This document shows positions 9,512 to 64,000 of a stretch of DNA of 64,000 nucleotides, piece after piece (position 1 is the stretch's first letter; each line of letters opens with the position of its first letter). The stretch covers positions 1,120,001-1,184,000 of the forward strand of contig CAVWVQ010000003.1 of the NCBI GenBank assembly GCA_963758525.1. The letters run 5' to 3'. Made by a program: the position numbers and the translations under genes. Source of the DNA: an uncultured Phycisphaerales bacterium. GTDB lineage: Bacteria > Planctomycetota > Phycisphaerae > Tepidisphaerales > Tepidisphaeraceae. The notes under the pieces are model-generated. The model ran no database searches, was not told the origin of the DNA, and worked only from the letters and a program-made list of their open reading frames with translations.

Positions 9512-9676
9512 AAAGAGAGTTCCCAAAGTGTCACACACCCCCCGGCATGCCTGGCGGGACTATCTTGTCACGTCGTCAAACGTTTGTATGATCCACCCAC
9601 CAACCCACTCGGCGGCCAAAACGCTGCTGATCCATGTCGGAGTTCTCCGGATTGTTGTCTGCTTCCGCAACTGCGC

Positions 9677-45238: not shown

Positions 45239-46107
45239 GGGGAAGCCTTGCTGGCGCAGACCACCACGAAATATCCGGTGACCGCCCGCGTGGGGTATTG
45301 GGCCAGGCGTTCGAATCGCATCAGGAACCGGAGCAGCCGTTCCTGATTTTTCGGCTGGCAGCCGCGCATCAGGCGGGTGGCGAGCACCGCGAGAAATCGC
45401 GGGCAGTGCAGCGTGTAGGTCACTTCGTTGACGGTCAGTCCCGCCGCTTCGACTTGCCGGCGGAGCGCGCCGGCGCCCATCGTCGCGCCCACGTAGTACG
45501 GCACGATTCCCAGGCGATTGAGCCAGCCGAATGGCAGCGCGTTGCGGATCCCGACCACGGGGTTGGTTGGATTATCGAGCATCACAATCAATCGCCCGCC
45601 AGGCCGCAGCACCCGCGCGAGCTCCCGGATCGAGAGATGCAGCTCTTCAACATTCGTAAAATGATCGAGCGTCGAATTGGATACGATGCCGTCGAAGGAG
45701 TTCTCCGCGAACGGAAGCCGGCGCACGTCGGCGGCGGTTTGCACGAGCGTCGGATGGCGAGCGCCCGCCGCCCGCAATACCGCCGGCGAAACGTCCATAC
45801 CGACCACTGTCGCGGCCCGCTGCGAGAGAAACGGGGCCAGGCCGGCGGTGGACGATTCGTCGAACATGTCGGTCTTCAGAATCGTCGGCACTTTCGTCCG
45901 CGAGAGTCTTGCCGACAAAAACGCGATGTTGACCGCGTCGCTATGGCGGCGCCAAAGCGTGTCGCATCCGTCCGCCTGCCATTCCGCCGACGCCTCGTCC
46001 CAATAATTCGCGCTGCTTTCGAGCGCCCCGCCCGCTGCGCCCGAGACTCGTAGCGTGATGCCCACGTCTTTAAAGTCGGTTTGCCGCTGCCAAGCCTGAA
46101 CTTCCAT
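45235..46107 (-). CDS. Class I SAM-dependent methyltransferase
   Basis: GMDVS, ADVRRLPFAENSFDGIVSNSTLDHF, RVLRPGG. Confidence 0.85.
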   Translation of the reverse strand: MEVQAWQRQTDFKDVGITLRVSGAAGGALESSANYWDEASAEWQADGCDTLWRRHSDAVNIAFLSARLSRTKVPTILKTDMFDESSTAGLAPFLSQRAATVVGMDVSPAVLRAAGARHPTLVQTAADVRRLPFAENSFDGIVSNSTLDHFTNVEELHLSIRELARVLRPGGRLIVMLDNPTNPVVGIRNALPFGWLNRLGIVPYYVGATMGAGALRRQVEAAGLTVNEVTYTLHCPRFLAVLATRLMRGCQPKNQERLLRFLMRFERLAQYPTRAVTGYFVVVCASKASP

Positions 46108-46361
46108 CGCCGCGTACGACGAATTGGTTGCGTCGCACTAAGCCCGATAAATCGCCGTCACCCTCCAACGTTCTCCCCGAGTCCCAACAGTGGGCCCACC
46201 GAAACGGGAGTGCAGCCAGCGCTGACTTCCACGCTTCAAGTTCTCAAATCATTTCCACTTGTTTGCGTTGAGGCACCACGACTTCTGACCGATCCACAGT
46301 GGCAGGAATCATTGCGTGCCTGACGCATGCAGTTGTGGCAATAGTCATTTCGCGAGGAAGA

Positions 46362-48122: not shown

Positions 48123-48453
48123 TCCTTCAGCAATCAACCCGGCGCATCGGGAACGCGAAGACTGGGATCGGTTTGCCAGAACCCGCGTCATTCGCCTCAA
48201 CGCGGGAATCCTCGGCACCGTCTTCGGACTGCTGGGCGGACTTCTCATCTTCCTGATGACCAACGTCCTCATCCTCAAGGGGGGCCCGGTGGTCGGGCCT
48301 CATCTGGCACTGCTCGCGCAGGTCTTCATCGGATATCGCGTGACCTTCGTCGGAAGCCTCATCGGATTTGCCTACGCCGGGCTTTTTGGCTGGATGACGG
48401 GATACGTCGGCGCCACGCTGTATAACGTCGCGGTGAAAATCCGCTCGCGATAA
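48115..48453 (+). CDS. Small membrane protein paralogous to the C-terminal domain of the upstream oxidoreductase
   Basis: LKGGPVVGPHLALLAQVFIGYRVTFVGSLIG vs LKGGHKIGPNLALLAQFFPGYSVTPLGSLIG. Confidence 0.8.
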   Translation: MSNPSAINPAHREREDWDRFARTRVIRLNAGILGTVFGLLGGLLIFLMTNVLILKGGPVVGPHLALLAQVFIGYRVTFVGSLIGFAYAGLFGWMTGYVGATLYNVAVKIRSR

Positions 48454-48470
48454 TCCGGCGGGCACGCTCC

Positions 48471-49790
48471 ATGCAGATCTCGCAGGCGGCATTCGACGCG
48501 GCTGTTTCCACGGTCCCGCTTCCGCGCCCTTCACGGGCGCAACGCCGTCTCTCGCCCGTACGGCGCGACACCGCCATCATGCTCGCCAGCGGAGTGGTCG
48601 TCCGCATTTGCGGGCTGGTCTTCATGATGGTGCTCTCGCGCCATCTCTCCAGGCAGGACATCGGCGTCTTCTCGTTCTACGAGGCAATTGCCGACACGCT
48701 CACGCTCATTGCCGGGTTCAGCCTGGAGATGGTGATCCTCCGGCGAATCGCCGCCGGAACGCGCGAAGACGCCATGATGAACGTGGCGCCCCTGCTGGCG
48801 TTCCGCATCATGAGCGCGCCGGTCTATCTGCTCTCCATCACAATCGTCGCGCAATTCGTGAGCGGACCGCGCTGGCTCCTGCCGTGCGTCGGCTTTTACA
48901 CGCTGATGGAGAGCGCCTTTTTTTCCTTCGGGAGCTTCTTCATTGGAGTCAAGCGCATCGGACTCAAAGCCGCCATCGAGGCCGGCGCCGAGGTGGTCTT
49001 CACTTCGCTTTTTCTCGTGGCGATCTACCGATATCCCTCGATCAAGACGCTGATCGTGCTCAGCACCGCGCACAGCGCCCTACTGCTGGGAACCGGCATT
49101 TACCTCGCGCACCGCTTCCACGGCCCGCTGCACCTGCGCTTTGCGCCGGTCGAGATGCTCCGCGCAGGCGCGCCGTTCGTCTTCATGTCATTGCTTGGAC
49201 TCCTGCAGGGCAGGATGGAAACAATGCTCCTCGGCTTCCTCGCCAGCCTGTCGGCAACCGGCGCGTATGAACTCTCGCTGAAGCTCGTCGTCGCGGCGAG
49301 CTTCATTCCTCAATCGATCAATCTTGCCGTTTATCCTTATATTGCTGCCGACGGACTCACCGCGCTGAACCGCAGCCGGCTGCTGCGAGGCTTGCTCCTC
49401 CTCGCGGCCCTGGGAGTCGGATCGGCCGGCGTGCTCTTCTTCTTTTCCAATCCCGTCGCGCGCGTTCTCTTTGGGCCGATGGCAGGCGAAGTCGCCCCGG
49501 TGTTGCGCGCGATCGCTCCCGCCCTGCTGATGCGTTTCCTCGCATCGGGAATCGCCTCGGGGGTCATTGCCATGGAAGGCGAAAAAAGTGTTTTCCGCTC
49601 GCTGGTGGCTGGAACCATCGTCGGACTCGCGGCTGATTGCCTGCTCATCCCCCATTACAAAGCCTCCGGCGCCGCTATCGGCATGATGATTTCCGCCGCC
49701 TGTCAGTGCGTGGTGACCGGCGCCGCGCTGCTCTCGCTGGTTGCCAAAGCACGCGATACCGAGGGAGACCGCGAAGCGCGGATCGCGTAG
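48471..49790 (+). CDS. Oligosaccharide flippase (Wzx/MOP family)
   Basis: ~12 TM; LSRHL..DIGVFS, MLLGFLAS..GAY, LIPHYKASGAAIG. Confidence 0.8.
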   Translation: MQISQAAFDAAVSTVPLPRPSRAQRRLSPVRRDTAIMLASGVVVRICGLVFMMVLSRHLSRQDIGVFSFYEAIADTLTLIAGFSLEMVILRRIAAGTREDAMMNVAPLLAFRIMSAPVYLLSITIVAQFVSGPRWLLPCVGFYTLMESAFFSFGSFFIGVKRIGLKAAIEAGAEVVFTSLFLVAIYRYPSIKTLIVLSTAHSALLLGTGIYLAHRFHGPLHLRFAPVEMLRAGAPFVFMSLLGLLQGRMETMLLGFLASLSATGAYELSLKLVVAASFIPQSINLAVYPYIAADGLTALNRSRLLRGLLLLAALGVGSAGVLFFFSNPVARVLFGPMAGEVAPVLRAIAPALLMRFLASGIASGVIAMEGEKSVFRSLVAGTIVGLAADCLLIPHYKASGAAIGMMISAACQCVVTGAALLSLVAKARDTEGDREARIA

Positions 49791-50006
49791 GCCCCTGCCA
49801 AGTCATTTTTTTTGGAGGGGACGTACGCGAAATTCCAAGACGGCTTAATCACCTCGACATGCGAGGAGGCAAGAAAAAACTCCGCAAATTCGCACGCGTT
49901 TTTTTTGTGTCTTTTGTGTTTTTGTGGCAATCTCTCTTCGCCCCCCGCGCACGTCGATCGAGCGAGGCGCATTCTGTGCCGCACCCCGCAAGTTCTCTAT
50001 GGATTG

Positions 50007-50681
50007 TCATTCGCCATTTCGGTCGGGACGCGGTTCCGTTGTCATCGCCACGTCCGGATCGAACCGGTACGCGAAATATTCGATGTCGTCCTTGCAGGTC
50101 TGTTCGACCAGCTCGCGCCCGCGCTGCGTGTAATAGGTGCGATAATCCTTGTGCTTCGAGCGATTGAGCCTTGGCAGATTCACATTGATCCCCACCTTGC
50201 GGCACACGTGCTGGAAATCGGCGTCGAGGTTCTCAAACCGGCCAATGAAGTCGATGATCTGCTTCCCCTCCTTGTCCGCCACGAAACATTTCTGCGACCA
50301 GGTCGGATGATCGACCCGGTAGCGGAGAAATTCCTCGAAGCCGCCGAGCTTGCTGATCGCGGCATGCTCGTGATGCGCTCGCCAGCGCATGATGTAGTGA
50401 TACAACGACACCTGCAAATCCCACGGATTGCGCACGAACGCAAACTTGAAGTAGCTGTCGAAAATCTCCGACGGAAGCTTCGCGCGAATCTCGTCCGCAT
50501 GCGCGTGCGACGACAATCCCGGGTACGGGTCCGGCGGCGGGAATCCGAGCCGGCGGCGGATGAAGTTCCACAGCAGATACTCCCGCCGATCGACATATGG
50601 ATTGAGCGCCGATCGCACACTCGTGCCGGCGGTCTTGAAGATATGAACGAAGATAAACCTATGCGATGTCGAGATTTGCAC
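50007..50681 (-). CDS. Sulfotransferase family 2 protein
   Basis: FIFVHIFKTAGTS (5'-PSB), FAFVRNPWD..VSLY (3'-PB), FIGRFENL. Confidence 0.88.
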   Translation of the reverse strand: MQISTSHRFIFVHIFKTAGTSVRSALNPYVDRREYLLWNFIRRRLGFPPPDPYPGLSSHAHADEIRAKLPSEIFDSYFKFAFVRNPWDLQVSLYHYIMRWRAHHEHAAISKLGGFEEFLRYRVDHPTWSQKCFVADKEGKQIIDFIGRFENLDADFQHVCRKVGINVNLPRLNRSKHKDYRTYYTQRGRELVEQTCKDDIEYFAYRFDPDVAMTTEPRPDRNGE

Positions 50682-51274: not shown

Positions 51275-52354
51275 GTGGCCACCGCTGAGCACGACGAATT
51301 TATCCGCACTCTCCTCCGCGACAACCCGATGCCCGGGCCGATCCAGATATCGCTGGAGAGGGAGCCAAACTATTTTGCCGGCGCCAAAATCGACGGCGCG
51401 GAGAGCACGACGATTCTGTCGCTTGAGAACGGCCGCGCCGTCTGCACCGGCTCGGCCAGCATCCGTATGCGATTTCTCAACGGCAGCGCGAATCGCGTCG
51501 GTTACCTCGGCGGGCTGCGGCTCGACAACTCCCATCGCGGTCATGCGTCGATCCTGCTGCGCGCGTATCGATTCTTCCGCGAGCTTCACCGCGCCCATTC
51601 AGATCCGCCGGTGGTCTATCTCTCCAGCATCCTCGCGAAAAACCTCCCGGCCATCCGGTTCCTCGAACGCAACCTCCCGGAGATGCCGACCTACACCCGG
51701 CTTGGCGATCTCGTCGCGGTGATGATCAAGGCTCGCCGTCACCGCGCCACGCTGCCACCCGGAACAACGCTGCGCACTGGCACAATTCAGGACCTCGGCG
51801 CGATCGCTGCTTTTCTCAATGCGCAAAACGCAAACTATCAGTTCGCCCCCTTGTGGACCGAGGAAAGTCTTCAATCCTGCACCGGCCTGAGCGTTTCCGA
51901 CTTCCACCTGATTTACGACAGCGACGGCGCGCTCATCGCCTGCGGCGCCCTCTGGGACCAGCGCTGCGTCCGTCAAACCGTGATCCGCGGCTACTCCCCG
52001 CGCCTGCGGCGCTTTCGGCCGATCATCAACCTCGCCGCCCGCCTGCTCCGTCGCCCCGGCGTGCAGGAAATCGGGCACGTGATTCCGCTCGCTTTTGCCT
52101 CTCACGTTGCCGCCACCAGCCCGGAATTGTTGACGTGCGTTCTGCAGTCCCTGCGTTCTGCCGCCTTCGACCGCGGGATCACGTTCCTGAACACCAGCTT
52201 CGATTCCCGCGATCCGCGCCTTGGCACGGTTCGCGACCAATTCCGCCCCGCCGAGTACCCCAGCCGGATCTATGTCGTCCGCTGGAACGACGGTGACGCC
52301 GTCGCCAGCAGCCTGGATAGCCGCCTGCTCAATCCCGATGTTTCGCTGCTCTAA
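51275..52354 (+). CDS. GNAT-like acyltransferase paralog 1 (true start may be slightly upstream)
   Basis: LLRDNPMPG.I.ISLEREPNYF, VGYLGGLRLD..HRG, WDQR.VRQTVIRGY; paralog of 59817-60943. Confidence 0.7.
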   Translation: MATAEHDEFIRTLLRDNPMPGPIQISLEREPNYFAGAKIDGAESTTILSLENGRAVCTGSASIRMRFLNGSANRVGYLGGLRLDNSHRGHASILLRAYRFFRELHRAHSDPPVVYLSSILAKNLPAIRFLERNLPEMPTYTRLGDLVAVMIKARRHRATLPPGTTLRTGTIQDLGAIAAFLNAQNANYQFAPLWTEESLQSCTGLSVSDFHLIYDSDGALIACGALWDQRCVRQTVIRGYSPRLRRFRPIINLAARLLRRPGVQEIGHVIPLAFASHVAATSPELLTCVLQSLRSAAFDRGITFLNTSFDSRDPRLGTVRDQFRPAEYPSRIYVVRWNDGDAVASSLDSRLLNPDVSLL

Positions 52355-52684
52355 TTTTCATGAACCGAAGACCAAGGGATAGCAATCCGTTGGCTTTACC
52401 CCCAAATCGCTCGCTGCCTCCTGTGCGCCGGGCACATTGCAGTTGATCGCTGCGGTAGTTTCGTTCACACGAGAAAAGTACACATTTTTGGGCTCGCGAT
52501 GCGACGCTTACTGAGAACGGGGTAATGATCGCCGAGGGTGCCTGTCAGTCGCTTCGCGTCGTCGCGGAACTCAATCGCGGAACACCCGTCGCATGCGCAA
52601 GCGAAGGCTTAAGCTCCATGGGCGGCAAAACGCCTGCTCCAACGCGAATTCACATCACCGCGGCGGTACCATCGTGATTCGCGC

Positions 52685-53718
52685 ATGGAACCATCCGATC
52701 CTCCGACTCCTCGCGTTTCGCTCCCGACGGTGCCGCGGGGCTGGTACTACTTCTGTCGGGCGAGCGATCTTCGGCCAGGACCGGCGCGACTGGATTTTGG
52801 CGGCGAGCGCTATGCGGCCTTTCGCGCGCCCGATGGGCAAGCGGCAGTGCTAAACGCCCGGTGCTCGCATATGGGGGCGGACCTTTCCAGCGGAATGGTG
52901 ATCGACGGCGGGTTGCGCTGTCCTTTGCACGCCTGGGAATATTCCGCCGATGGGTCATGCCGGCGCCTGCCGGCCGGCGGAACGATCCCGCCTCTGGCCC
53001 GGCAGGCGGTGTTTCCATCGGCAGAAGTTGGGGGACACGTCTTCTTCTTCAATGCGCCGGTGGCGCGGCATCCGATGCCATTCTTTGCCGGCAAATCCTC
53101 GGACGAGCTGCTGGCGGCCGATCCGTTCGATCTGAAGATCAAAGCGCCATGGTACATGGTGGGGGCGAATGCGTTTGACCAGCAGCATTTTCGGGTGGCG
53201 CACGACCGGACACTTCTGGACACGCCGGTGGTGGAGTCGCCGGCGCCGTTGCGCAGCGCATCACCGCCAACTACGCGGTCGCCGGCAAGTCGCTGCGCGA
53301 CCGCATCACCCGGCGAGTGTCCGGGCCGCGCGTACGAATGACCGTCACGATCTGGGGCGGCACGCTGATTTTCGTGGAGGCCAGCTTCCAGCGGACCACC
53401 ACCTACGGGTTGGTCAGCGTTGCTCCAATCGACGATCACAGCGCAACGATGCGCACCATCGTCTGGGTCCAGAGAAGCAGCGGAGCGGTGGCTCGCGCGA
53501 TCATCGACCCGCTCGACGCGTGGCTGCGACGCCAATTTATTCATGCGTTCCTGATGGAAGACGCAGTGAGAAGCGACGGCGTACGGTACAATCCCGCGAC
53601 GGTCATCGAAGCTGATCGCGGTTTGGCGGCGTACATGGCGTGGCTCGAATCCATATGCGCCGTCCAACCTGATCCATCTCAATTCTGCCCGGGAGGTTCT
53701 CATGTCTGTCATTCGTGA
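52685..53718 (+). CDS. Rieske non-heme iron oxygenase/desaturase (apparent frameshift ~53250)
   Basis: PRGWY, CSHMGADL...CPLHAWEY (Rieske CxH/CxxH), NAFDQQHFRVAH mononuclear Fe motif; continues in ORF 53317..53718. Confidence 0.85.
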
Positions 53719-54325
53719 CCGCACTCGATGGCCCCTGTTGCTTGTGATGCTGTGTGCGATTCCGCTGCGGGCTCAGACGACGCAGGGCATCACTGAGCCC
53801 GATCCGCTCAAGGCGATCGCGGCGCTCCGCGGCGAGCTGATCGACAGCTTCAACAAGCGCGACATCGATCGGCTGCTGTCCAACCTCGATCCCGATGTGA
53901 TCGTCACGTGGCAAAACGGAGAAGTCTGCCGCGGACCGGGCGCGGTTCGGGACTACTACAACCGGATGATCGCGGGGCCTAATCCGGTGGTGGTGAATTT
54001 CACGTCCGATCCAACCGTGACCGACCGGCACGTTTACGGCGACTGGGCCGTCTCCTGGGGAAATCTTCACGACAAATACGAATTGAAAGATGGCGATCAC
54101 TTCGCTCTCAACAGCCTGTTCACGGCCACGATCGCGCGGCGCGGCGACGCGTGGAAAGTGGTGAGTTTTCACGCATCGGTCAACGCGTTTGAAAATCCGA
54201 TCCTTGGCATGGTCGCGAAGAAATCGGCGACGTGGGCAGGCATCATCGCCGCGGTTGTCGGCGCGCTGATCGGCATCGTGCTGGGCCGGCTTTCCGCGCG
54301 GCGCAAAGCGATTGTTCCCCAATGA
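53702..54325 (+). CDS. Exported NTF2/SnoaL-like (DUF4440) protein with C-terminal membrane anchor
   Basis: Signal peptide; SFNKRDIDRLL..DPDV..GPGAVRDYY..WKVVSFHAS; C-terminal TM. Confidence 0.75.
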   Translation: MSVIRDRTRWPLLLVMLCAIPLRAQTTQGITEPDPLKAIAALRGELIDSFNKRDIDRLLSNLDPDVIVTWQNGEVCRGPGAVRDYYNRMIAGPNPVVVNFTSDPTVTDRHVYGDWAVSWGNLHDKYELKDGDHFALNSLFTATIARRGDAWKVVSFHASVNAFENPILGMVAKKSATWAGIIAAVVGALIGIVLGRLSARRKAIVPQ

Positions 54326-55278
54326 TCCGCAGTCCGGACAGCGACGAGGCCGAACAGTCGCTTCTCGACCGCGCTGGCGTGCATCCAATGTGTCTGCAAA
54401 GCCAGACGCCGGGGCCATCGGCCTGGCGCGAGCTGGTGGGCTCCCTGGGCATCGACTTCGCCACTGCAGTGCAATACTTGCGAGTCCGCGTGCATTCGCG
54501 GCATGCGGCGTTTGCCGATGCGGTGGAATCATCTCATTCGCGCACCCCGTCCGGTGACACGCCGCGGATCGTGATCATGCCGGGCGCCTTTTACCGGCAA
54601 TACCCGCGGACCGGAGCCGACGGAGAGATGGTGCGATCGATTGCCGGCGACCTGGGTTGGCCGGTCGAGCGTGTAGAGGTTGCGAGCATGGCAACCATGG
54701 CCGAAAACGCCGAGGCGCTGGCGGCACTGCTGCGCCGGCTTTCGTCTGGCCCGGTGATTCTGATTTCCCTGAGCAAGGGAGGCTCGGACGTGCGCACGGC
54801 GCTGGCCCGACCCGATCTCGCGGACGCGCTTGTGAAGGTGAGGATGTGGTTGAATCTCAGCGGAATCGTCACCGGAACGGCGCTTGTCGGTTGGCTGCAA
54901 TCGCACCCGCTAAACTATTGGGGCGTGCGATCGCTGCTCGCGCTGCGCCGCCAGTCGTTTGCCGCTGTTCGCGAGCTGCGGCGCGAGCCGGGGGCGCCGC
55001 TGTCCATGCCACTGACGCTGCCGGCCCATCTCACAGCAGTGCATGTGCTGGGCTTTCCGCTGATCGGGCATCTCAGCGACAACTGGGCCCGCCGCGGGCA
55101 CGCGCGGCTCGCGCCGCTGGGCCCCAACGACGGCGGCGGAATTCTCCTGGCGGATTGCGAGAGCCTGCCGGGCCAAATCTATCCAGCGTGGGGCGCGGAT
55201 CACTATCTCCGTCCCGCCTGGATCAGGAAGCGCCTGGCGACGATCGTGTCTCAGTCCGGGGTCGTTGCAATGACATAG
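54322..55278 (+). CDS. Alpha/beta-hydrolase-fold (lipase/acyltransferase-like) protein
   Basis: IVIMPG, nucleophile elbow ILISLSKGG, PNDG, ADH; ATGA coupling to the upstream gene. Confidence 0.65.
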   Translation: MIRSPDSDEAEQSLLDRAGVHPMCLQSQTPGPSAWRELVGSLGIDFATAVQYLRVRVHSRHAAFADAVESSHSRTPSGDTPRIVIMPGAFYRQYPRTGADGEMVRSIAGDLGWPVERVEVASMATMAENAEALAALLRRLSSGPVILISLSKGGSDVRTALARPDLADALVKVRMWLNLSGIVTGTALVGWLQSHPLNYWGVRSLLALRRQSFAAVRELRREPGAPLSMPLTLPAHLTAVHVLGFPLIGHLSDNWARRGHARLAPLGPNDGGGILLADCESLPGQIYPAWGADHYLRPAWIRKRLATIVSQSGVVAMT

Positions 55279-55987
55279 CAGTCGCGTCCGGCGCAGAGGC
55301 GGCGGCCGACACTCCAGCGATGTTTGGGGCGCTTTTCCGCCATGCCAGCGCATGCGCTGCCAGCCCAAGCACAGCACCGCCAAGCGTGTCGACGGCATAG
55401 TGCTCCTTGGTAGCCAGCGTGGCATAGCAAATTGCCGCGCCCCAGATGATGCACAACGCGGCGCAGGCGCGCGGCAGTTGTCCGCGAAAGCTCCGCCAGC
55501 CGAAAGCGAGGGTGTACACCAGCAAACCTACGTGCAAAGACGGAAAAGAATTGAGCGTGGCATCGTACTGGATCAGCAGCCAGCACATGCCGTGTGCATC
55601 CGGCATCGGGGGGCGAGGCGCGCGGATTGGATAGAGGATGAAGATCGCGAAACTGACAGCCGACAGCAAGACCAATCCGATGGCATACCGCCGCAAATCT
55701 TCACGGCGATCCGCGAGCCAGGGAATCAGATTGATCGGGATATACAGCGACTGATAGACCCAGATCCAAGTATAGGGATGAAATCCGATTGCCCTGTCGA
55801 GCGCGGTGAGCGGCAGCCGATGCTCCGGCATCAGCGGATGGAACCCGATCAGGAAGTAGGCTGAACAAAACAGGACTCCCGCGGCGATCTGTAACCCCGC
55901 CTTGAGCCTCCAGTGCAACCGAAGGCGCAGCGCCGCACTGCGGGCAAAGGAACGCCAGCTCGGCCTATTGAATGACCCGGCCGGCAT
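55223..55987 (-). CDS. PAP2/phosphoesterase-family membrane protein
   Basis: NSFPSLHVG and KEHYAVDTLGG motifs; multi-TM. Confidence 0.8.
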   Translation of the reverse strand: MPAGSFNRPSWRSFARSAALRLRLHWRLKAGLQIAAGVLFCSAYFLIGFHPLMPEHRLPLTALDRAIGFHPYTWIWVYQSLYIPINLIPWLADRREDLRRYAIGLVLLSAVSFAIFILYPIRAPRPPMPDAHGMCWLLIQYDATLNSFPSLHVGLLVYTLAFGWRSFRGQLPRACAALCIIWGAAICYATLATKEHYAVDTLGGAVLGLAAHALAWRKSAPNIAGVSAAASAPDATAMSLQRPRTETRSSPGAS

Positions 55988-56918
55988 ACTTGTTCTCGAC
56001 CCGCTGATCGGTGCGCCGCGGGCCGTGCCACATGCGAAGGTAGGCCAATGGCAAAAAGCCGCGCGGCTCAACTGCTTCGGTCCCTATTCGCGGGAGATGC
56101 ACCCAGGGGACGGTGGGATGTTCGTGATGCACGCGATGCCAGTTGTGATTCAGCCAGATCGCGTCGATCGGTGCGAACAGTTTCAAGTTGCGCGCGCCGC
56201 GGGTGACGTGCCGCTCGGTGGCATAATGATGCACATATTGCATCGCCGACCACGAAAAACCGAACGCTCCATACAGTGCCAGATCATTCAGCAGCGGCAC
56301 GCGGAGGAGCAGGAGAATGCACGCGTGCAGCACGATGGCGGCAATCCCTTCGCATCTGATCCACCGCAGATGCGCCGGGTTGAACGATTCGAGAAACGCC
56401 GCGCCAGGCCGGTCGAACTTCACGTGGCGTTCCACTTTGAAATGCCGGCGGTCGAGCAGAAACGGAAATGCGGCCGCAACGACATTGCTCACCACGACCA
56501 GCAGATAATACAGGCCGGTGAGAATCCCGATCCAGGCCATCCACCTCCAGACCGGATTGTCTCCCTCGAAGTAGAGATCGAACGCCTCGTCATCGGAGCG
56601 GTTGCGAAGGTGATGTCCGATGTGCCCCTGGCGCAGGAGATGGAACGGGGCGGGGAAGAACAACGCCATGAGGATGCCCGCTGCCTCGTTGACCCTTCGA
56701 TCCGGGAAGAGCATGGCGTGCTCGGCTTCGTGGATGATCGAATAAACGGAGTTCATCAGGATGGCAAATCCAACGGCCAGCCCCGCGACGGGCCAGAAGC
56801 CGTGGAGTCGTTTGGCGGCAGTGAAACAGACCGCCAGCGCGACCAGCTGCGCAGCGATGATGAGCGCATTGAAAGCGGTGGGGATCCGATGGTTTGCCGC
56901 GGCGGAATTGCGAATCAT
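55965..56918 (-). CDS. Membrane fatty-acid desaturase
   Basis: His boxes HEAEH, HIGHH, QYVHH, HNWHRVHH; ATG 56918 with AAGGAG upstream. Confidence 0.88.
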   Translation of the reverse strand: MIRNSAAANHRIPTAFNALIIAAQLVALAVCFTAAKRLHGFWPVAGLAVGFAILMNSVYSIIHEAEHAMLFPDRRVNEAAGILMALFFPAPFHLLRQGHIGHHLRNRSDDEAFDLYFEGDNPVWRWMAWIGILTGLYYLLVVVSNVVAAAFPFLLDRRHFKVERHVKFDRPGAAFLESFNPAHLRWIRCEGIAAIVLHACILLLLRVPLLNDLALYGAFGFSWSAMQYVHHYATERHVTRGARNLKLFAPIDAIWLNHNWHRVHHEHPTVPWVHLPRIGTEAVEPRGFLPLAYLRMWHGPRRTDQRVENKYAGRVIQ

Positions 56919-57022
56919 TCGAAAACCATTCTCCTTTGGATCGACCAATATGGTACGCTTGGGATCGCACCTGGCGGTAGCGAAAAATGGCAGGTCCCCG
57001 GCAGATTGGGGTTCGTTCGCCC

Positions 57023-58426
57023 ATGTCATCGCATTCGAAGAAGCTTCGCGTTGTTTTAATTTCTCCCAAGGGACCGCTCTACCGCCATCGCGGCGGACTT
57101 TTCAAGCAATCGCTCCGCTATCAGCCGCTGACGCTGACGACGCTGGCCGCGCTGCTTCCGCCGGAACTGCCGATCGAGCTGACGCTGATCGACGAGGGAA
57201 TCGCCGACGTCCCCGACCAAATAGACGCGGACCTGGTCGGACTGACGGTGATCACCGGCACCGCGCCGCGCGCTTACGAGCTGAGCGATCGGTTCCGCGC
57301 GGCAGGCATTGCCGTCGTGCTGGGCGGCCCGCATGTCACGCTCATTCCCGAAGATGCCCAGCCGCACGCCGACGCGGTCGTCGTCGGCTACGCCGAAGAC
57401 AGTTGGCCCCAACTGCTTCGCGATTTCGCTGCCGGTGCATTGCGACCGCGTTACGACCAGTCGCCGGGGCTCGATCTGGCCGATCGTCCTTTTGCGCGTC
57501 GCGATCTTCTGCCGCGCTGGCGATACCTCACCAGCGACGTCTTCGAAGCAACGCGCGGCTGCGTTCACAACTGCGATTTCTGCGTGGTTCCGTCCGCGTG
57601 GGGACGCAAACCGTTGCAGAAGCCGGTGGAGGACGTGGTGCGCGACATCCGCGCCGAGAGAGCGAGGAAGCTGATCTTCGTGGATCTGAATCTCATCGCG
57701 GATCGCGAATATGCCGTGCGGCTGTTTACTGCACTGGTGCCGCTGGGCGTGCAATGGTACGGCCTGTCGACGGTGCTATTGACCGAAGATCGGCCGCTGC
57801 TGGATCTGGCTGCGCGAAGCGGGTGCCGCGGGTTGCTGATGGGGCTGGAGTCGATTTCGCCGGAGAATCTCCGCGCCAGTCGAAAGGGTTTCAACTCGCC
57901 CCAGCGGTATGCCGAAGTCGTTCGACGGCTGCACGATCGCGGGATCGCGCTGCAGGGATGCTTCGTCTTCGGACTCGATGGCGACGATCCGGATGTCTTC
58001 CTCAAGACCTCGCAGTTTGCCGTCGACGTGCGCATCGATCTGCCCCGATTTGCGATCGTCACGCCCTTCCCCAACACCGAGCTCTATCGGCGCCTCGTCA
58101 GCGAGGGACGCATCCTCACGAGAAACTGGGAACTGTACGACGGGCAACATGTCGTTTTTCAGCCGAAGCAAATGAGCGTTCAGGAGTTGCAGGACGGCAC
58201 CGAAGCCGCGTGGAAACACGCTTACAGCGCACGGTCGATTCTCAAACGTCTCGCGCACTCGCCCGCGCCGTGGTCGGTGCGCCTGGCGACAAATCTGGGC
58301 TACCGCTTTTACGCGAATCATCTGAGCCGTTTCTATAACTGCGACTGGATCATCGGCAGATCGCCACGGCGCGGCCGCGCCCCGTTTGTCGCGGGGCTAC
58401 CGACGGTGCAAGAGAGGCCGGCGTGA
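57023..58426 (+). CDS. B12-binding radical SAM protein 1
   Basis: N-terminal cobalamin-binding-like domain (VVLGGPHVT..DAVVVGYAE), TRGCVHNCDFC, TPFPNT. Confidence 0.9.
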   Translation: MSSHSKKLRVVLISPKGPLYRHRGGLFKQSLRYQPLTLTTLAALLPPELPIELTLIDEGIADVPDQIDADLVGLTVITGTAPRAYELSDRFRAAGIAVVLGGPHVTLIPEDAQPHADAVVVGYAEDSWPQLLRDFAAGALRPRYDQSPGLDLADRPFARRDLLPRWRYLTSDVFEATRGCVHNCDFCVVPSAWGRKPLQKPVEDVVRDIRAERARKLIFVDLNLIADREYAVRLFTALVPLGVQWYGLSTVLLTEDRPLLDLAARSGCRGLLMGLESISPENLRASRKGFNSPQRYAEVVRRLHDRGIALQGCFVFGLDGDDPDVFLKTSQFAVDVRIDLPRFAIVTPFPNTELYRRLVSEGRILTRNWELYDGQHVVFQPKQMSVQELQDGTEAAWKHAYSARSILKRLAHSPAPWSVRLATNLGYRFYANHLSRFYNCDWIIGRSPRRGRAPFVAGLPTVQERPA

Positions 58427-59781
58427 AACTGACGATTATTCATCCGTGCATCGGACGTCATGCGGGAGACCGCAAATACATCCGCACCTGGCAGATGGAG
58501 CCCCTGCCCGCCGCCGCGATCGCGGGACTGACGCCGCGCGACGTGGACGTGACGTTTTACGACGATCGGCTCGAATTGATCCCATTCGACGAACCGGCGG
58601 ATCTCGTGGCGATGAGCGTTGAAACATACACCGCAAAGCGCGCGTATCAGATCGCCAGCGAATATCGCCGGCGCGGCGTGCCGGTGGTGATGGGCGGCTT
58701 CCATGCGTCGCTGCTGCCGGACGAAGTCAGCCGCCACGCGGAATCCGTGGTTGTCGGGGAGGCCGAGGCGATCTGGCCGCGCATCATCGACGACGCGCGC
58801 CACGGTCGGCTGGAAAAGATCTACCGCCAGAGCGGCCGCCCGTCCCTCGCGGGCATGAAGCCCGACCGCGCGATCTTCCGCGGGAAGCGATATCTGCCGA
58901 TCGGGCTGGTGGAGGCGGGCCGCGGGTGTCATTTCAAGTGCGAGTTCTGCGCGGTGCAAACCGTCTTCGGCGCGACGCAGACGCGCCGGCCGATCGACGA
59001 CATCCTGCGCGAAGTGGCGGAGGTGCGGCACTACCGCCGGCTCTTCTTCTTCGTCGACGACAACATCACGTCCAACATGCGGCAGGCGAAGGATTTCTTC
59101 CGCGCACTGATCCCGCTGAAGATACGCTGGGTGAGTCAGGCGAGCATTAACGCCGCCCACGACGAGGAATTTCTCGACCTGCTGGTGCGCAGCGGCTGCA
59201 TGGGCGTGCTGATCGGATTCGAAAGCCTGAACCCCGCGAATTTAAAGGAGATGAACAAGTCGTTCAACACGATGCGCGGCGGATTCGCCAAGGCGCTTGC
59301 CAACCTCCGCCGTCACCGGTTGCGCGTCTATGGCACGTTCATCTTCGGATACGACCGCGACACCCGCGACAGTTTCACCGAGACGGTCGATTTCGCGCAA
59401 GAGCATGCCCTTTACATTGCCGCGTTCAATCACCTCACGCCGTTTCCCGGAACCCCGCTGTATGCGCGCCTGGAATCGGAGGGCCGGCTGCGATACCCCA
59501 GTTGGTGGCTGGATGACCGGTATCGCTACAACAATATTCCCTTCACGCCCGCGTCGATGAGCGCGGCGGATCTTCAGCGATATTGCCTGCTCGCTCGCCG
59601 GGCGTTTTATTCCTGGCCGAGCATCGTCCGACGCGGCTTCGACGCGGTGAACCGGGACGATGCGTTCATGTGGAAAAACTTCTATCTCATTAACGCAATG
59701 CATCGATCCGACGTGAGCATGCGCGACGAATATCCCCTTGGAGATGAAGCCTGGAAAGGGCCGTTCCTGTCGGCAAATTGA
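58423..59781 (+). CDS. B12-binding radical SAM protein 2
   Basis: VVMGGFHAS..VVVGEAE, GRGCHFKCEFC, FVDDNI, TPFPGTPLY. Confidence 0.9.
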   Translation: MKLTIIHPCIGRHAGDRKYIRTWQMEPLPAAAIAGLTPRDVDVTFYDDRLELIPFDEPADLVAMSVETYTAKRAYQIASEYRRRGVPVVMGGFHASLLPDEVSRHAESVVVGEAEAIWPRIIDDARHGRLEKIYRQSGRPSLAGMKPDRAIFRGKRYLPIGLVEAGRGCHFKCEFCAVQTVFGATQTRRPIDDILREVAEVRHYRRLFFFVDDNITSNMRQAKDFFRALIPLKIRWVSQASINAAHDEEFLDLLVRSGCMGVLIGFESLNPANLKEMNKSFNTMRGGFAKALANLRRHRLRVYGTFIFGYDRDTRDSFTETVDFAQEHALYIAAFNHLTPFPGTPLYARLESEGRLRYPSWWLDDRYRYNNIPFTPASMSAADLQRYCLLARRAFYSWPSIVRRGFDAVNRDDAFMWKNFYLINAMHRSDVSMRDEYPLGDEAWKGPFLSAN

Positions 59782-59816
59782 TGCGATGGGACACTTTGCG
59801 GAGGACTGAGGGATTC

Positions 59817-60943
59817 ATGACTGTCATGGAGACAAAGCCTCGAGCGATCGATGGCGTTGCGGTCTTCCGGGCGCCTGCGCAGCAGATGACGAGCAGCTCC
59901 GCCGTCTGCTTCGAGAGAACCCGATGCCGGCCGGGATTTCGCTCTCGATGGAGCGGGAGCCGAATTACTTCGCCGGAGCCGCGATGGACGGCTCGGAACA
60001 TCAAACCATCGTGGCGATCGAGGATGGGCGCGTCGTTTGTGCCGGCACGATCGGCGTCAGTTCCCGGTTTCTCAACGGCGTTGCGGCACGGGTTGGATAT
60101 CTCAGCGGACTGCGTCTGGATCGCGCCTGCCGAAGCCGGCCGTCCATCCTGCGGCAAGGGTATCAGGTGTTCCATGATCTTCACCGGCGCGCTGGCGAAC
60201 CCGCCGTCTATCTGACCAGCATCTTTTCTGCCAATGCACGCGCGATCCGATTTTTCGAGCGCAATCTCCCGTGGATGCCGACCTACCGCAGGATCGCGGA
60301 TTTTGTCACGGTTGTCCTTCGCGTGCGTCCGCAACTGCGCGAGGCCGACGGCGCCGCGAGCGGGTGCGCCGCCGCAGAATCGGATTTGCCGCTCATCACC
60401 GATCTGCTCAATCGGCAGAATGAACAGCTTCAATTTGCCCCGGTATGGAGTGTCGAGAAGCTCAAGCGATGCAGCGCATTACAGGCGGCCGATTTTCGCC
60501 TGGCCCGCGATCGCGACGATCACCTTGCCTGGTGCGCCGCGGTCTGGGATCAGCGCGCCGTCCGGCAAACCGTTGTCCGCGGCTACCCGCCGATGCTGCG
60601 ACGGATGCGTCCGCTCGTTAATTTCGGTGCGCGCCTTCTGCGAACGCCGCGGCTCCCTGCGGTCGGCAAGACGATTCCGCTCGCGTTTGCGTCGCATATC
60701 GCGGCAACGCCCGACTCGCTGCCGGCTGCCCTCCGGTCGCTCGAGACTGCCGCGAGCCAGCGCGGCATTGAATATCTGACGGTCGGATTTGACGCCCGCG
60801 ACCCGCGGCTTGGCGTTGTTCGCAGGCATTTCAAAGGACGCGAGTATTCGAGCCGGATCTATCTCGTTTATTGGGAAGACGGCGCCCAATGCGCCGAAGC
60901 CGTCGCCGACGGTATCGTGGCGCCGGAAGCTGCGCTCCTATGA
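59817..60943 (+). CDS. GNAT-like acyltransferase paralog 2 (apparent frameshift ~59875)
   Basis: ATG 59817 with RBS; DDEQLRRLLRENPMPAGISLSMEREPNYF, VGYLSGLRLD, WDQRAVRQTVVRGY. Confidence 0.72.
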
Positions 60944-61665
60944 CTCAGACCATCGCCACCACGCACCGGTTGATGCCGCGCGCCGCGCTCGCGCCGGACG
61001 AACTGGCGGAAATGCATGGTCTGCTCGACGCCTATTTCCGCGGCGTGTCGCAGCGACAATTCCTTGGCGATCTGCGGGAAAAGAATTGGGTGATCCTGAT
61101 CGAACGGGGCGGCCGGATCGTCGGATTCTCCACGATCCTGGCGTATCAGACCGAATTTGAAGGCGAGCCGCTGGCGGTCATCTATTCCGGCGACACCGTC
61201 GTGGCACGCGAGGCCTGGAACAGTTCGGCACTGGCGCGCGGGTGGATCGAATCGGTGGCGGCGCTGCGGCCGCTCTATCCCAGCGGTCGCTTCTTCTGGC
61301 TGCTTCTGACGTCCGGTTTCCGCACCTACCGGCATCTGCCCCTGTTCTGGGAAGAGTTCTATCCCCGCTTCGACGCGCCGACGCCACCGGCAACTCAAGC
61401 GCTCATCGATCATCTTTCCGCCGAGCGCTTCGGACCGTGCTGGGACCGCGCCGCCGGCGTGGTGCGATTCGCCCATCCGCAGCCGTTGCGCGACGGGCTG
61501 GCCGAGATTCCGGTCAGTCGCTCCGCTGATCCGCACATCGCATTTTTTGCCGCCCGCAATCCCGCGCACGCGAACGGCGACGAACTCGTCTGCCTGACCG
61601 AGCTGTCCCCCGGCAATCTCACCAGCGCCGGCCGCCGGATGGCATCAGCAGTTCCGATATGGTGA
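60940..61665 (+). CDS. Conserved hypothetical protein, probable GNAT-like fold
   Basis: ATGA-coupled; GRIVGFSTI...IYSGDTVV..EAW, WLLLTSGFRTYR.LP, GDELVCL. Confidence 0.6.
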   Translation: MTQTIATTHRLMPRAALAPDELAEMHGLLDAYFRGVSQRQFLGDLREKNWVILIERGGRIVGFSTILAYQTEFEGEPLAVIYSGDTVVAREAWNSSALARGWIESVAALRPLYPSGRFFWLLLTSGFRTYRHLPLFWEEFYPRFDAPTPPATQALIDHLSAERFGPCWDRAAGVVRFAHPQPLRDGLAEIPVSRSADPHIAFFAARNPAHANGDELVCLTELSPGNLTSAGRRMASAVPIW

Positions 61666-63239
61666 AGACGCAACTCGCCAATGCCGCCTGGTTGCTCGCC
61701 AGCGCTCCTGCCTACGGGGCATTCACGCGTGCGCTCAATGATCCGGGCGCCGCGGCAGGGCAGGTGTTGCGACGGATTCTGCGCGACGGCGCCAACAGCG
61801 AGTTCGGCAGGGAACATGGATTTTCGCAGATTCGCACGCCGGAGCAATTTGCCCAAAACGTGCAGCCGCGCGATTACGACCAGATGTCCCCCTGGATCGA
61901 GCGCATCGCCCGCGGCGAAAAAAACGTGCTGGCGCCCGGCGAAGTGCGACGCCTTGTTCCCACCAGCGGCTCTGCCGCCGCCCGAAAGCTGATTCCGTAC
62001 AACGATGCCCTGCAGCGGGAGCTCAACTGCGCGATCGCGCCCTGGATTTACGATCTGCATCTGCGGCATCCCAAGGCAATGCGGGGCAGCGCCTACTGGT
62101 CGGTGACGCCGGCGGCTCCTGTTGCCCGGGAGACTTCAAAGATCCCGATCGGATTCGATGACGACTCGGCCTATCTGGGCGGCTGGCGCCGACGGTTGAT
62201 CGACGCCACGCTGGCCGTCCCCGGCGCGTTTCGCGAGGTCGCATCGATATCCGCGCTGCGATACCTCACGCTCCTGTCCCTTTTGCGCCGCCGCGATCTG
62301 AGTCTGATATCGGTCTGGCATCCTTCATTTCTCGGCCTGCTGCTCGACGAGATGCACGCGCGCCGTGCGGAATTGATTGCCGATGTGAGGAACGGCACCT
62401 GCGAGGTTGCCAATGAGATTCCACCGCACATCGTACCGTTCGCGGTCTCTCGGCCGGATCGGCGCCGCGCGAACCAGATCGCCCGGGCGAACGGGGTCGC
62501 GGAGATCTGGCCCAATCTCGCCGCCATCAGTTGCTGGGCGGACGCGAATGCCTCGGCGGCGGCTGCCAACCTCGGCGCGCTGTTTCCCGGCGTCGTGCTG
62601 CAGCCAAAGGGACTTCTCGCCACAGAGGGATTTGTTTCCATTCCGTTTGCGGGCCATCATCCGTTGGCGATTCGGTCCCACTATTTCGAATTTCTCGACG
62701 ATCGCGGACGTCTGTTCCTGCCGTGCGATCTGCGGATCGGCCAAACCTTCACGCTCCTGCTCACCACCGGCGGCGGACTCTATCGCTACCGTCTCAACGA
62801 CATGGTTCGCGTAGACGGATTCGTCGGGCGAACACCGTCGATTCGCTTCATCGGCAAGGCCGCGCTCGTCTCCGATCTGCGGGGAGAGAAATTGACCGAC
62901 GGCTTCGTCGCGACCGTGATGCAGCGCCTGCCGGTGCGAGCTCCCTTCATGCTGCTCGCCCCTGAAGAGGATGGGAACGATTGCCGCTACACTCTGTATC
63001 TCGCGTGCGCCGCCCCTGCGTCACCGCTGGACTTGGTGCTCGACGAGTTGCTCTGCGAAAATCCCCAATACGCATATTGCCGGCGGCTGGGGCAATTGAA
63101 GCCCTGCCGGGTTCACCCTGTGCGGGAAGACGCCTACGACATGTATTGCCGGCGGCTCCAGTCGCTCGGCCAACGCATCGGCGACATCAAACCCGCGTCG
63201 CTCAGCGCGCTGACCGGCTGGAGCATTTGGTTCCAGTGA
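61659..63239 (+). CDS. GH3 family (auxin-responsive-like) acyl-adenylate/amido ligase
   Basis: SEFGREHGF, PTSGSAAARKLIPY (P-loop-like), LLATEG, LTTGGGLYRYRLND, GEKL. Confidence 0.85.
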   Translation: MVKTQLANAAWLLASAPAYGAFTRALNDPGAAAGQVLRRILRDGANSEFGREHGFSQIRTPEQFAQNVQPRDYDQMSPWIERIARGEKNVLAPGEVRRLVPTSGSAAARKLIPYNDALQRELNCAIAPWIYDLHLRHPKAMRGSAYWSVTPAAPVARETSKIPIGFDDDSAYLGGWRRRLIDATLAVPGAFREVASISALRYLTLLSLLRRRDLSLISVWHPSFLGLLLDEMHARRAELIADVRNGTCEVANEIPPHIVPFAVSRPDRRRANQIARANGVAEIWPNLAAISCWADANASAAAANLGALFPGVVLQPKGLLATEGFVSIPFAGHHPLAIRSHYFEFLDDRGRLFLPCDLRIGQTFTLLLTTGGGLYRYRLNDMVRVDGFVGRTPSIRFIGKAALVSDLRGEKLTDGFVATVMQRLPVRAPFMLLAPEEDGNDCRYTLYLACAAPASPLDLVLDELLCENPQYAYCRRLGQLKPCRVHPVREDAYDMYCRRLQSLGQRIGDIKPASLSALTGWSIWFQ

Positions 63240-63405: not shown

Positions 63406-64000
63406 TCAAAACTGATCCCAAATCGGCTGGAACCAATTTGGGACCTCATCCGACTTCAGCTCGATCCGTGTCCCGTCCGTGATTTCCGCAAAGTACCAGG
63501 ATTCTTCTCCGCTGGTGTCGAATAGGAACGCCCGATCGGCGAAGCGGATAGAATCGCGCAGCAGCGCCAGCGATCGATGGTACCGCGAGACGATTTTATC
63601 CTCGGGTACGTCGTGCCCTCCTCCCGAAACACGATTCTTGACGCGCTGAACATTGATGGCGGGATCTTCGGTCGCGACGTAGTAGAGGTAAGTGCGGAAT
63701 CCGCGGACTTTGGCATTTGAAAGAAGATCGACCTTGTCGCGAGCCGACATCACCGTCTCAAACGAAAACGATCTTGACGCTGCCATTGCTTTTTGCCGAA
63801 GGAAGTCCGCAAGCACCGAGGCGTAATAGGAATTTATTTGCAGAGGTCCGAACTCGAGCGTATCGGATCGAATCTCAATCGCGTGGGCGGCCGAGTCGAG
63901 TTGCTTGCGCTGAAGGAACGAGGACGAGGTAAAATGGCTTCGGATTTCTTCCGTCGTCGTACGCAGTTCGAAGGGTTTCAACGACAGCACGCCGGTTTCG
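63406..64000 (-). CDS. Zeta-toxin-like / predicted ABC-type P-loop ATPase, 5' end outside window
   Basis: SFSFETVMS, YYVATEDPAINVQRVKNRVSGGGHDVPEDKIVSRYHRSL. Confidence 0.75.
   Translation of the reverse strand, partial: ETGVLSLKPFELRTTTEEIRSHFTSSSFLQRKQLDSAAHAIEIRSDTLEFGPLQINSYYASVLADFLRQKAMAASRSFSFETVMSARDKVDLLSNAKVRGFRTYLYYVATEDPAINVQRVKNRVSGGGHDVPEDKIVSRYHRSLALLRDSIRFADRAFLFDTSGEESWYFAEITDGTRIELKSDEVPNWFQPIWDQF

Follow-up and report, generated by a model that had tools for sequence, protein, structure and literature searches.

Organization of the locus

The DNA analysed here, referred to as the window, is a stretch of 64,000 nucleotides from an uncultured Phycisphaerales bacterium (assembly GCA_963758525.1, contig CAVWVQ010000003.1, positions 1,120,001 to 1,184,000 of the forward strand), and its subject is a putative biosynthetic cluster of 11 genes in 12 open reading frames (ORFs) at window positions 51275–63239. 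An original prediction, made from the sequence letters, had described these genes as a pathway to an unusual lipid or N-acyl amide, and the 11 genes and the gene overlaps that it reported are indeed present, as judged from Pfam and the sequence. Our analysis places a GH3 ligase and two families of GNAT proteins at the conserved heart of the cluster, all of them predicted to form amide or ester bonds; one GNAT family resembles in fold N-myristoyltransferase (NMT), by which eukaryotes attach fatty acids to proteins. The features of the locus are:

51275..52354, plus strand: GNAT1, NMT-like tandem GNAT by predicted fold (359 aa); local duplicate of GNAT2; ends DVSLL-stop
52685..53718, plus strand: Rieske non-haem iron oxygenase (PF00355), split into ORFs 52685–53341 and 53317–53718
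53702..54325, plus strand: NTF2/SnoaL-like protein (PF13474/PF14534/PF12680)
54322..55278, plus strand: alpha/beta-hydrolase-like protein with SLSKGG elbow; likely an O-acyltransferase
55223..55987, minus strand: PAP2-superfamily membrane enzyme, predicted Aur1/Ipt1-like branch (PF14378 and PF01569; ATG at 55987)
55965..56918, minus strand: membrane His-box di-iron desaturase/hydroxylase (317 aa; PF00487, E 6.6e-21)
56919..57022, no strand: intergenic spacer of 104 nt separating the start of the desaturase gene from that of the divergent rSAM1 gene; presumably a divergent promoter region
57023..58426, plus strand: rSAM1, B12-binding radical SAM protein (467 aa; PF02310, PF04055; ATG at 57023)
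58423..59781, plus strand: rSAM2, second B12-binding radical SAM protein (452 aa; PF04055; PF02310 just below cut-off)
59817..60943, plus strand: GNAT2, syntenic NMT-like tandem GNAT; likely start 59817; ends EAALL-stop
60940..61665, plus strand: GNAT3, single-domain GNAT of an unnamed family by predicted fold (241 aa)
61659..63239, plus strand: GH3 acyl-adenylate-forming amide ligase (526 aa; PF03321, PF23571, PF23572)

The predicted coupling of neighbouring genes holds at four junctions (ATGA at 54322, GTGA at 58423, ATGA at 60940 and a 7-nt overlap at 61659–61665), but PAP2 and the desaturase are encoded on the minus strand and point away from rSAM1, which rules out a single operon. A scan for sigma-70 consensus promoters, the divergent spacer included, returned 0 sites against 2.9 expected. 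The Rieske, SnoaL-like, PAP2, desaturase and GH3 proteins and the Radical_SAM domains of both rSAM1 and rSAM2 score above their Pfam cut-offs; the B12-binding domain does so in rSAM1 (46.8 bits) and falls just short in rSAM2 (31.1 bits vs the cut-off of 32.1). No polyketide synthase, nonribosomal peptide synthetase or acyl carrier protein domain was matched by Pfam in the cluster, and no precursor peptide emerged: the window and loci L031–L114 yielded 9,264 short ORFs, and the only conserved ones were shadows of larger genes.

Two of the genes are interrupted. Alignments of the Rieske gene to its orthologues follow frame 2 up to position 53251 and frame 1 from 53254, which places a 1-nt frameshift near 53252; the gene is a single ORF in 60 of 62 related loci, one of the exceptions being cut by the locus edge and the other split. 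For GNAT2, homology begins at 59873, about 17 codons ahead of the first in-frame ATG (59924), and an ATG at 59817, in another frame, is preceded by what resembles a ribosome-binding site, which makes a 1-nt shift near 59870 likely; the N-terminus is intact in the closest relative (locus L158). Both breaks fall at short base runs. The assembly (6.47 Mb in six contigs, with the window on contig C3) is 90.9% complete with 6.1% contamination, and in it the reading frames of valS and alaS are likewise broken, whereas those of rpoB, rpoC, gyrA and ileS are intact (two of six tested genes split). Other frame-split genes are one with a squalene cyclase domain elsewhere in the genome and, within the window, ordinary genes for a solute symporter (39160–41353), an alpha-galactosidase B-like protein (42057–43786) and probably a GT2 protein (44184–45238). 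That so many ordinary genes are split points to frequent single-base errors in the assembly, and the frameshifts in the Rieske and GNAT2 genes are probably errors of this kind; genuine pseudogenes are unlikely. No contig listed from three soil DNA runs, which share 5–7% of words, bridges either frameshift. The G+C content of the cluster is 63%, vs about 61% for the genome.

Conservation and distribution of the cassette

A GH3 alignment search of a genome collection yielded 401 confirmed relatives among 452 candidate stretches, of which the best 80 were kept. Beside GH3 in these 80 loci we found GNAT3 in 78, a tandem GNAT in 75, rSAM2 in 73, rSAM1 in 66, the desaturase in 49, the NTF2 protein in 42, the Rieske protein in 39, the hydrolase in 28 and PAP2 in 22. 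All of these counts are minima, because short contigs are frequent and the search did not pick up a second subgroup of PAP2. Thus five core-block genes recur next to GH3 in 66–78 of the 80 best loci, more than chance would give, and the lack of co-conservation that the original prediction had named as a refutation is not seen.

To avoid anchoring on close relatives we also searched genome samples with a GNAT3 profile, which matched 6/401, 5/201, 18/401 and 8/301 genomes, seeds included. Thirty-two loci from these samples and four named plasmid-collection records make up 36 GNAT3-anchored loci, and here the picture is sharper: GH3 is present in 33 and a tandem GNAT in 30, followed by rSAM1, rSAM2 and the Rieske protein (17 each), the desaturase (14), PAP2 (12), the NTF2 protein (10) and the hydrolase (3). 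The rSAM pair was not found in 19 of the 36, for example in Acinetobacter baumannii and Burkholderia arboris. The near-constant company of GH3 and tandem GNAT defines a core of three genes, GH3, GNAT3 and tandem GNAT, around which the rSAM pair, desaturase, Rieske, PAP2, NTF2 and hydrolase genes are swappable tailoring functions. Gene order is also kept: GH3 directly follows GNAT3 in 111 of 118 cases, GNAT3 comes after a tandem GNAT in 94 of 110 and rSAM2 after rSAM1 in 79 of 87 (counts that include a few duplicate or closely kin loci). Co-occurrence among the accessory genes was read from the 86 of 201 GNAT3 loci that carry at least three of them, the other 115 being dropped, and since kin loci are not independent we treat the results as patterns rather than as p-values.

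The cluster is real and common to several phyla, including Planctomycetota, Verrucomicrobiota, Acidobacteriota and Pseudomonadota. Judged by record titles, carriers include Planctomycetota, Verrucomicrobiota (among them the cultured Chthoniobacter flavus), Acidobacteriota, Gammaproteobacteria and Binatia, and in metagenomes no fewer than 531 relatives of GNAT3 show this layout. The Citrobacter portucalensis version has five radical SAM proteins together with PAP2, NTF2 and desaturase genes. That of B. arboris has PAP2, desaturase, Rieske and AurF-like genes and no radical SAM gene in the 24 kb read. In A. baumannii, among whose sequence records the three-gene core is common, the core trio (L111:9159-16835) is interspersed with genes for HlyD, MFS and outer-membrane efflux proteins; this locus also adjoins a LuxR regulator and an amidase, and its protein clusters have thousands of members. 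The names given to orthologues from Acinetobacter, Burkholderia and Chthoniobacter go no further than hypothetical, GNAT or GH3 protein, and a GH3 of A. baumannii is mentioned once in PMC5997985. Three versions free of radical SAM genes (L141, L143 and L149) carry an FG-GAP/UnbV protein, with a MarR regulator in two and an MMPL transporter in one. GH3 was not found in two genomes of the same genus as the source of the window (94% and 81% complete).

The GH3 ligase

All three Pfam domains of GH3 (N, M and C) score above cut-off, and the motifs TSGSAAARK, KGLLATE and GGLYRYRLND, conserved in 44 sequences, match the nucleotide-binding motifs as quoted in the text of PMC12493201. Its PDB matches are all plant GH3 proteins, its closest named relatives are in metagenome-assembled genomes of Phycisphaerales and Tepidisphaeraceae, and the cluster copy is the single GH3 match in the whole assembly. 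These features place the protein in the class of acyl-adenylate-forming amide ligases, with ATP-dependent amide formation as its predicted activity.

The nearest described system is the OlsH/OlsI(/OlsG) route of Singulisphaera acidiphila, in which, according to the main text of PMC12493201 (2025), the bacterial GH3 protein OlsH makes amino lipids of the N-acyl-ornithine type. The two systems share a GH3 protein with three nucleotide-binding motifs and an alpha/beta-hydrolase-fold gene nearby. They differ in that the two GNAT families are core and the hydrolase optional in our cassette, and in that its GH3 does not score as OlsH: against NF052613 it reaches 35.4 bits vs a cut-off of 620, the Citrobacter copy reaches 42.5 and the A. 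baumannii copy has no match. The terms 'GNAT', 'radical SAM' and 'desaturase' have 0 mentions in the main text of PMC12493201, and neither GNAT nor radical SAM appears in the text of PMC12971839 that was available; in those same texts other GH3 homologues and clades are expected to use other amino acids. By analogy, the cassette would work like the OlsH/OlsI route without being a member of it. As an OlsI-like check, a hydrolase-fold gene is present in 43 of the 86 accessory-rich loci, and a stand-in hydrolase (not OlsI itself) showed no similarity to it. In genomes of the same class (L023–L027) a different GH3 group adjoins an alpha/beta-hydrolase; three of these GH3 proteins were scanned as OlsH candidates and scored 80–115 bits, below the cut-off of 620. 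A candidate GNAT3-GH3 fusion was also rejected, its sole long match (P0312) being a frameshift chimera.

Two families of GNAT proteins

The GNAT calls lie below the Pfam cut-off and were assigned by predicted fold. This upheld the claim of three GNAT-like proteins as regards fold; as regards families there are two. GNAT1 and GNAT2 are 50% identical and are sisters in an 87-sequence tree (support 0.991), a local duplicate pair, and no second full tandem GNAT copy was found in any other locus compared. Median identity to orthologues is 38–40% for the tandem GNATs and 47% for GH3.

The model of GNAT1 (pLDDT 94.7) has a tandem GNAT fold, and its top structural match is yeast NMT (2p6e; Z 23.0, rmsd 3.3, 293 residues aligned, 10% identity). 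Residues 1–359 align onto yeast NMT 83–455, with residue 359, at which the chain ends, on the terminal yeast residue 455, and the Thr/Ser at the end of beta-5 is kept, as in Nmt1p and HsNMT1. Bacterial tandem GNATs (MAB_4324, MshD and Eis) share the fold as well. The cassette protein differs from all of these in its low identity (10–14%), in having no sequence-profile match in the PDB and in the lack of a protein substrate in the cassette locus. NMT membership by sequence was likewise negative: there was no match to the NMT Pfam families, and the PDB profile search contained no NMT up to E 10.

A terminal motif, [DE]xxx[LIVM]-stop, ends 110 of 112 closed tandem GNAT ORFs, the Acinetobacter, Burkholderia and Citrobacter copies included; of the two that lack it, one is a fragment and the other a weak match of 34 bits. 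In human NMT, as stated in the part of PMC7048800 that we draw on, the C-terminal carboxylate is the catalytic base. From the NMT-like fold and the conserved terminal carboxylate we infer that the tandem GNAT would perform NMT-type N-acylation of a primary amine.

GNAT3 (model pLDDT 95.4) is a single GNAT domain. A structure search made to compare it with acyl-ACP GNATs of the LuxI/FeeM/OlsB type placed LasI first (Z 12.1, rmsd 3.2, 165 residues aligned). That score ties with those of generic GNATs (NatD, Gcn5 and others at 11.4–11.9), and FeeM follows at 10.6. Its profile aligns with that of the tandem GNAT over 114 columns (hhalign, E 1e-4), and the protein is distant kin of the first tandem GNAT domain. 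No common Pfam family was found in 30 of 30 Atlas neighbours, and the Q/RxxGxG/A loop, as it is described in the available text of PMC4964394, was not seen in GNAT3 by eye. Azospirillum has GNAT3 copies of 27–29% identity, and at the one such locus opened (L113) there were no other cassette genes within 12 kb. A search of viral contigs gave 111 pattern matches and 0 relatives.

The radical SAM pair

Both rSAM1 and rSAM2 have the predicted class B (B12-binding) architecture, with methyl transfer or ring formation as the predicted reaction. Their cluster-binding motifs are CVHNCDFC and CHFKCEFC, respectively, and CxxxCxxC is intact in 76 of 76 tree sequences; a DxHxxG motif is present in neither protein of the window, and rSAM1 has an additional below-cut-off match to DUF4070. 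The two are about 36% identical and form two separate deep clades. In this they differ from the B12-dependent proteins with which they share architecture (HpnP/HpnR/HpnJ, BchE, GrsA/B and the ladderane-associated TIGR04072), as also in travelling as a pair and in reaching five copies in Citrobacter. Indeed, HpnP, HpnR, HpnJ, BchE, PhpK and the other named families of B12-dependent radical SAM proteins were all far below cut-off among the 21 and 25 NCBIfam models listed (best scores 74 bits vs 578 for rSAM1 and 90 bits vs 600 for rSAM2), and PDB matches are remote.

With median identities to orthologues of 74.7% (rSAM1) and 75.9% (rSAM2), these are the most conserved genes of the cassette, and conservation of about 75% across phyla points to a fixed substrate. 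Both are present in 121 of the 201 GNAT3 loci and neither in 57; rSAM2 stands alone in 22 and rSAM1 in one, and such single-gene loci probably reflect contig ends. Some loci (L019, L020, L132, L140, L154, L155, L203, L211 and similar ones) carry a radical SAM protein of a third, unrelated family with weak resemblance to Tes/TrsS. Among the 86 accessory-rich loci it is present in 7 and was never seen with the main desaturase or the Rieske gene, which suggests that it may replace an oxygen-needing step.

Tailoring enzymes

PAP2 and the desaturase are multi-pass membrane proteins that co-occur in 72 of the 86 loci. Desaturase residues H63, H67, H99, H102, H103, H231, H264 and H265 are invariant in 25 sequences. 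PAP2 matches PF14378 at 47 bits vs a cut-off of 27, PSLH and H...D are invariant in 25 of 25 sequences, and the best PDB match of its profile is Aur1 (E 2.9e-9, vs 0.008 for PgpB). The FPSLH and HYxxD motifs align with those of Aur1, so that the protein resembles the Aur1/Ipt1 inositol-phosphorylceramide synthases and other PAP2 phosphotransferases, and a phosphotransferase or phosphatase role is predicted from these motifs. It differs from Aur1/Ipt1 in that the match covers only the C-terminal 70 positions and in that serine palmitoyltransferase is not among the cassette's conserved neighbours.

At 11 loci (L139, L095, L079, L109, L110, L085, L152, L218, L230, L232 and L237) PAP2 is fused to a domain with a DDxxD motif, in some cases with RDxxED, which we take, from its motifs, to be isoprenoid-synthase-like. 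At L139:141-2729(-) the desaturase lies in the same stop-free frame as the fusion, and at L041 the domain stands alone; altogether 12 ORFs with it were seen among about 200 loci scanned. It was not found in the genome of the window and had no sequence match in the PDB.

The Rieske protein has both the CxH..CxxH and the NxxDxxHxxxxH motifs. The best PDB match of a whole orthologue is KshA (E 2.6e-21, Rieske domain only), and the best NCBIfam match of the Rieske protein is the sterol monooxygenase SdmA (45 bits vs 600). The NTF2 protein begins with what looks by eye like a signal peptide, and its hydrophobic segment at 174–200, a membrane segment near the C-terminus, recurs in 39 of 44 orthologues; its best match is BaiE, which is weak (E 0.005).

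The original prediction had left one gene as hypothetical; it is present as described and can now be refined to an alpha/beta-hydrolase-like protein, with a weak match to PcaCD (E 6e-4) and, for an orthologue, to Palm_thioest (E 0.001). Residues S151, D270/D278 and H294 are conserved in 29 sequences. In the 86 loci this gene and one for a left-handed beta-helix (LbH) acyltransferase-like protein are found alone in 43 and 30 cases and together in 0, where 15 would be expected, with about 13 switches between them on the poorly resolved GNAT3 tree of 73 loci. This mutual exclusion suggests that the hydrolase-fold protein is likely an O-acyltransferase.

Other neighbours that are swapped in include a second desaturase, FA_hydroxylase, PhyH, P450 and AurF-like proteins, all lipid-type oxidases. 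The AurF-like di-iron gene is present in 41 of the 86 loci (e.g. L059:4431-5324(-)); it is not in the cluster of the window and was not found elsewhere in its genome.

Proposed product and route

No characterization of this gene set was found in NCBIfam, the PDB or the openly accessible literature, subscription journals and MIBiG lying outside the scope of the search, and a match to a known cluster, another refutation named in the original prediction, did not turn up. Apparently, then, the cassette combines known enzyme folds in an undescribed way. The proposal of an unusual lipid or N-acyl amide stands as the best-supported class of product; what has changed is the conserved heart of the pathway, which is GH3 with two GNAT families, the radical SAM, desaturase, Rieske and PAP2 enzymes being optional. 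Based on gene content, folds, catalytic motifs and co-occurrence, with every chemical step inferred, we suggest at about even odds (roughly 0.5) that the cassette makes a multiply acylated, C-methylated and probably phospho-headgrouped amide-linked envelope lipid.

In the proposed route GH3 would adenylate a fatty acid with ATP and couple the activated acid with a diamine or an amino acid, the latter being ornithine in the case of OlsH. The tandem GNAT would then take another acyl chain from a thioester and place it on a free primary amine with its C-terminal carboxylate as base, and GNAT3 might carry out a further acyl transfer or act as a partner of GH3. Unactivated carbons at two positions would be methylated (or cyclised) by the radical SAM pair, and double bonds or hydroxyls added by the desaturase and Rieske enzyme. 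The hydrolase-fold protein could O-acylate a hydroxyl, and the Aur1-like PAP2 could transfer a phospho-headgroup from a phospholipid to a hydroxyl or remove a phosphate. Finally, the membrane-anchored NTF2 protein may bind or ferry the product outside the cytoplasmic membrane. Generic fatty-acyl substrates are favoured by the five-radical-SAM version in Citrobacter, a genus that is not known to make sterols, hopanoids or sphingolipids.

Several observations weigh against such a lipid. The Aur1 match is limited to positions 137–207 of the PAP2 profile, and the hydrolase has no pairwise similarity to the one adjoining a distant GH3 group. The NMT match of GNAT1 is tied with the tandem GNAT MAB_4324 (Z 22.6 vs 23.0), and NMT Asn246 has by eye no obvious equivalent. 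The A. baumannii core sits among efflux genes without tailoring enzymes, as does that of L129, and L130 has RND efflux genes. Hints of steroid-type chemistry are found in the KshA match, the weak BaiE match, the MMPL gene and the PAP2-DDxxD fusion. Moreover, the pathway would combine oxygen-needing with oxygen-sensitive enzymes.

A more specific version of the envelope lipid, which we regard as rather unlikely, is a sphingolipid mimic that GH3, the NMT-like enzyme and the Aur1-like PAP2 would build without serine palmitoyltransferase: a di- or triacylated amino lipid with a phospho-headgroup and rSAM-methylated chains, occurring in many phyla. Such a product would mean a new class of membrane lipid with a new route to it, a candidate source of unassigned soil lipids and a bacterial relative of NMT catalysis. 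CerS, the ceramide N-acyltransferase of bacteria, has a GNAT fold. Bacterial ceramide synthesis by Spt, CerS and CerR, as set out in the text sections of PMC11324152 used here, resembles the proposed route in that an N-acyltransferase makes an amide lipid to which a headgroup is then added. It differs in that no Spt, dedicated acyl carrier protein or reductase is conserved in the cassette, which has GH3 instead; Spt, CerS and CerR were absent from the conserved neighbours of the cassette, and no whole-genome search for them was made.

The GH3 clade of the cassette counts hundreds of members, and neither of its GNAT families has a name. Identification of the product would put names to a number of hypothetical families together and could bring to light B12-radical chemistry of a new kind on lipids. 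Since copies exist in cultured organisms (C. flavus, Citrobacter, Burkholderia and the A. baumannii core), it should be possible to find the product by ordinary expression and lipidomics.

Alternative products

It is possible, at well below even odds, that the same enzymes make a secreted small fatty-amide metabolite (a signal, surfactant or antimicrobial) rather than a structural lipid. An exported small molecule fits the core-only versions among efflux genes (A. baumannii, L129 and L130) equally well, and the MarR, AraC or LuxR regulators that adjoin some loci, the AurF-like enzyme in 41 of 86 loci and the patchy distribution, down to the two same-genus genomes in which GH3 was not found, are all consistent with it. 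Patchiness, however, is also typical of accessory lipids, no transporter is conserved beside clusters of the window type, and the PAP2, desaturase and anchored NTF2 proteins are membrane-bound.

Quite unlikely is a pathway in which methylation, oxidation and coupling with an amino acid act on an isoprenoid or triterpenoid acid scaffold, much as in the side-chain chemistry of bile acids or hopanoids. The steroid-type matches of the Rieske (KshA and SdmA) and NTF2 (BaiE) proteins, the 11 loci with a PAP2-DDxxD fusion, the MMPL gene beside one locus and the squalene cyclase domain gene of this genome suggest such a scaffold, but the matches are weak or confined to the Rieske domain and the DDxxD domain is rare and was not found in this genome, as detailed above; versions of the cassette also occur in Citrobacter and Acinetobacter, which are not known to have triterpenes.

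Still less probable is acylation of a protein or peptide N-terminus by the NMT-like enzyme, as bacterial N-acylation or in the making of a lipopeptide; GH3 would provide the acyl group in activated and modified form, and the radical SAM pair would modify chain or peptide. PAP2 and the desaturase would have no obvious role in it. The NMT-like fold and conserved C-terminal carboxylate would suit this chemistry, and B12-radical SAM proteins do act in pathways to RiPPs, peptides that are made by ribosomes and modified after translation (there are weak NCBIfam matches to ApyD and TIGR03975), but no conserved small ORF was found among the 9,264 of the loci scanned, and the loci conserve neither a peptidase nor a gene for a candidate substrate. 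Least probable of all is that a described pathway was missed or that the cluster is decaying locally without a product in this organism, since, against the two frameshifted genes and the lack of a bridging contig for either, all NCBIfam scores are far below cut-off, orthologues carry only generic names and the essential valS and alaS are split too in this assembly.

Neighbouring genes

Upstream of the cluster lies a separate glycan-type block (44184–50681) with genes for a GT2 protein, a SAM methyltransferase, an FAD oxidoreductase, a flippase and a sulfotransferase, and right after GH3 an ORF on the minus strand (63406–63990) has a below-cut-off zeta-toxin Pfam match (E 3e-4). Neither is co-conserved with the cassette: a single weak methyltransferase match was obtained in 235 loci, many of which end short upstream. 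Farther away, positions 9584–38766 hold genes for allophanate hydrolase, a sigma-54 response regulator, a CHASE/PAS sensor, ABC transporter components and urease alpha, likely a urea and nitrogen-scavenging region.

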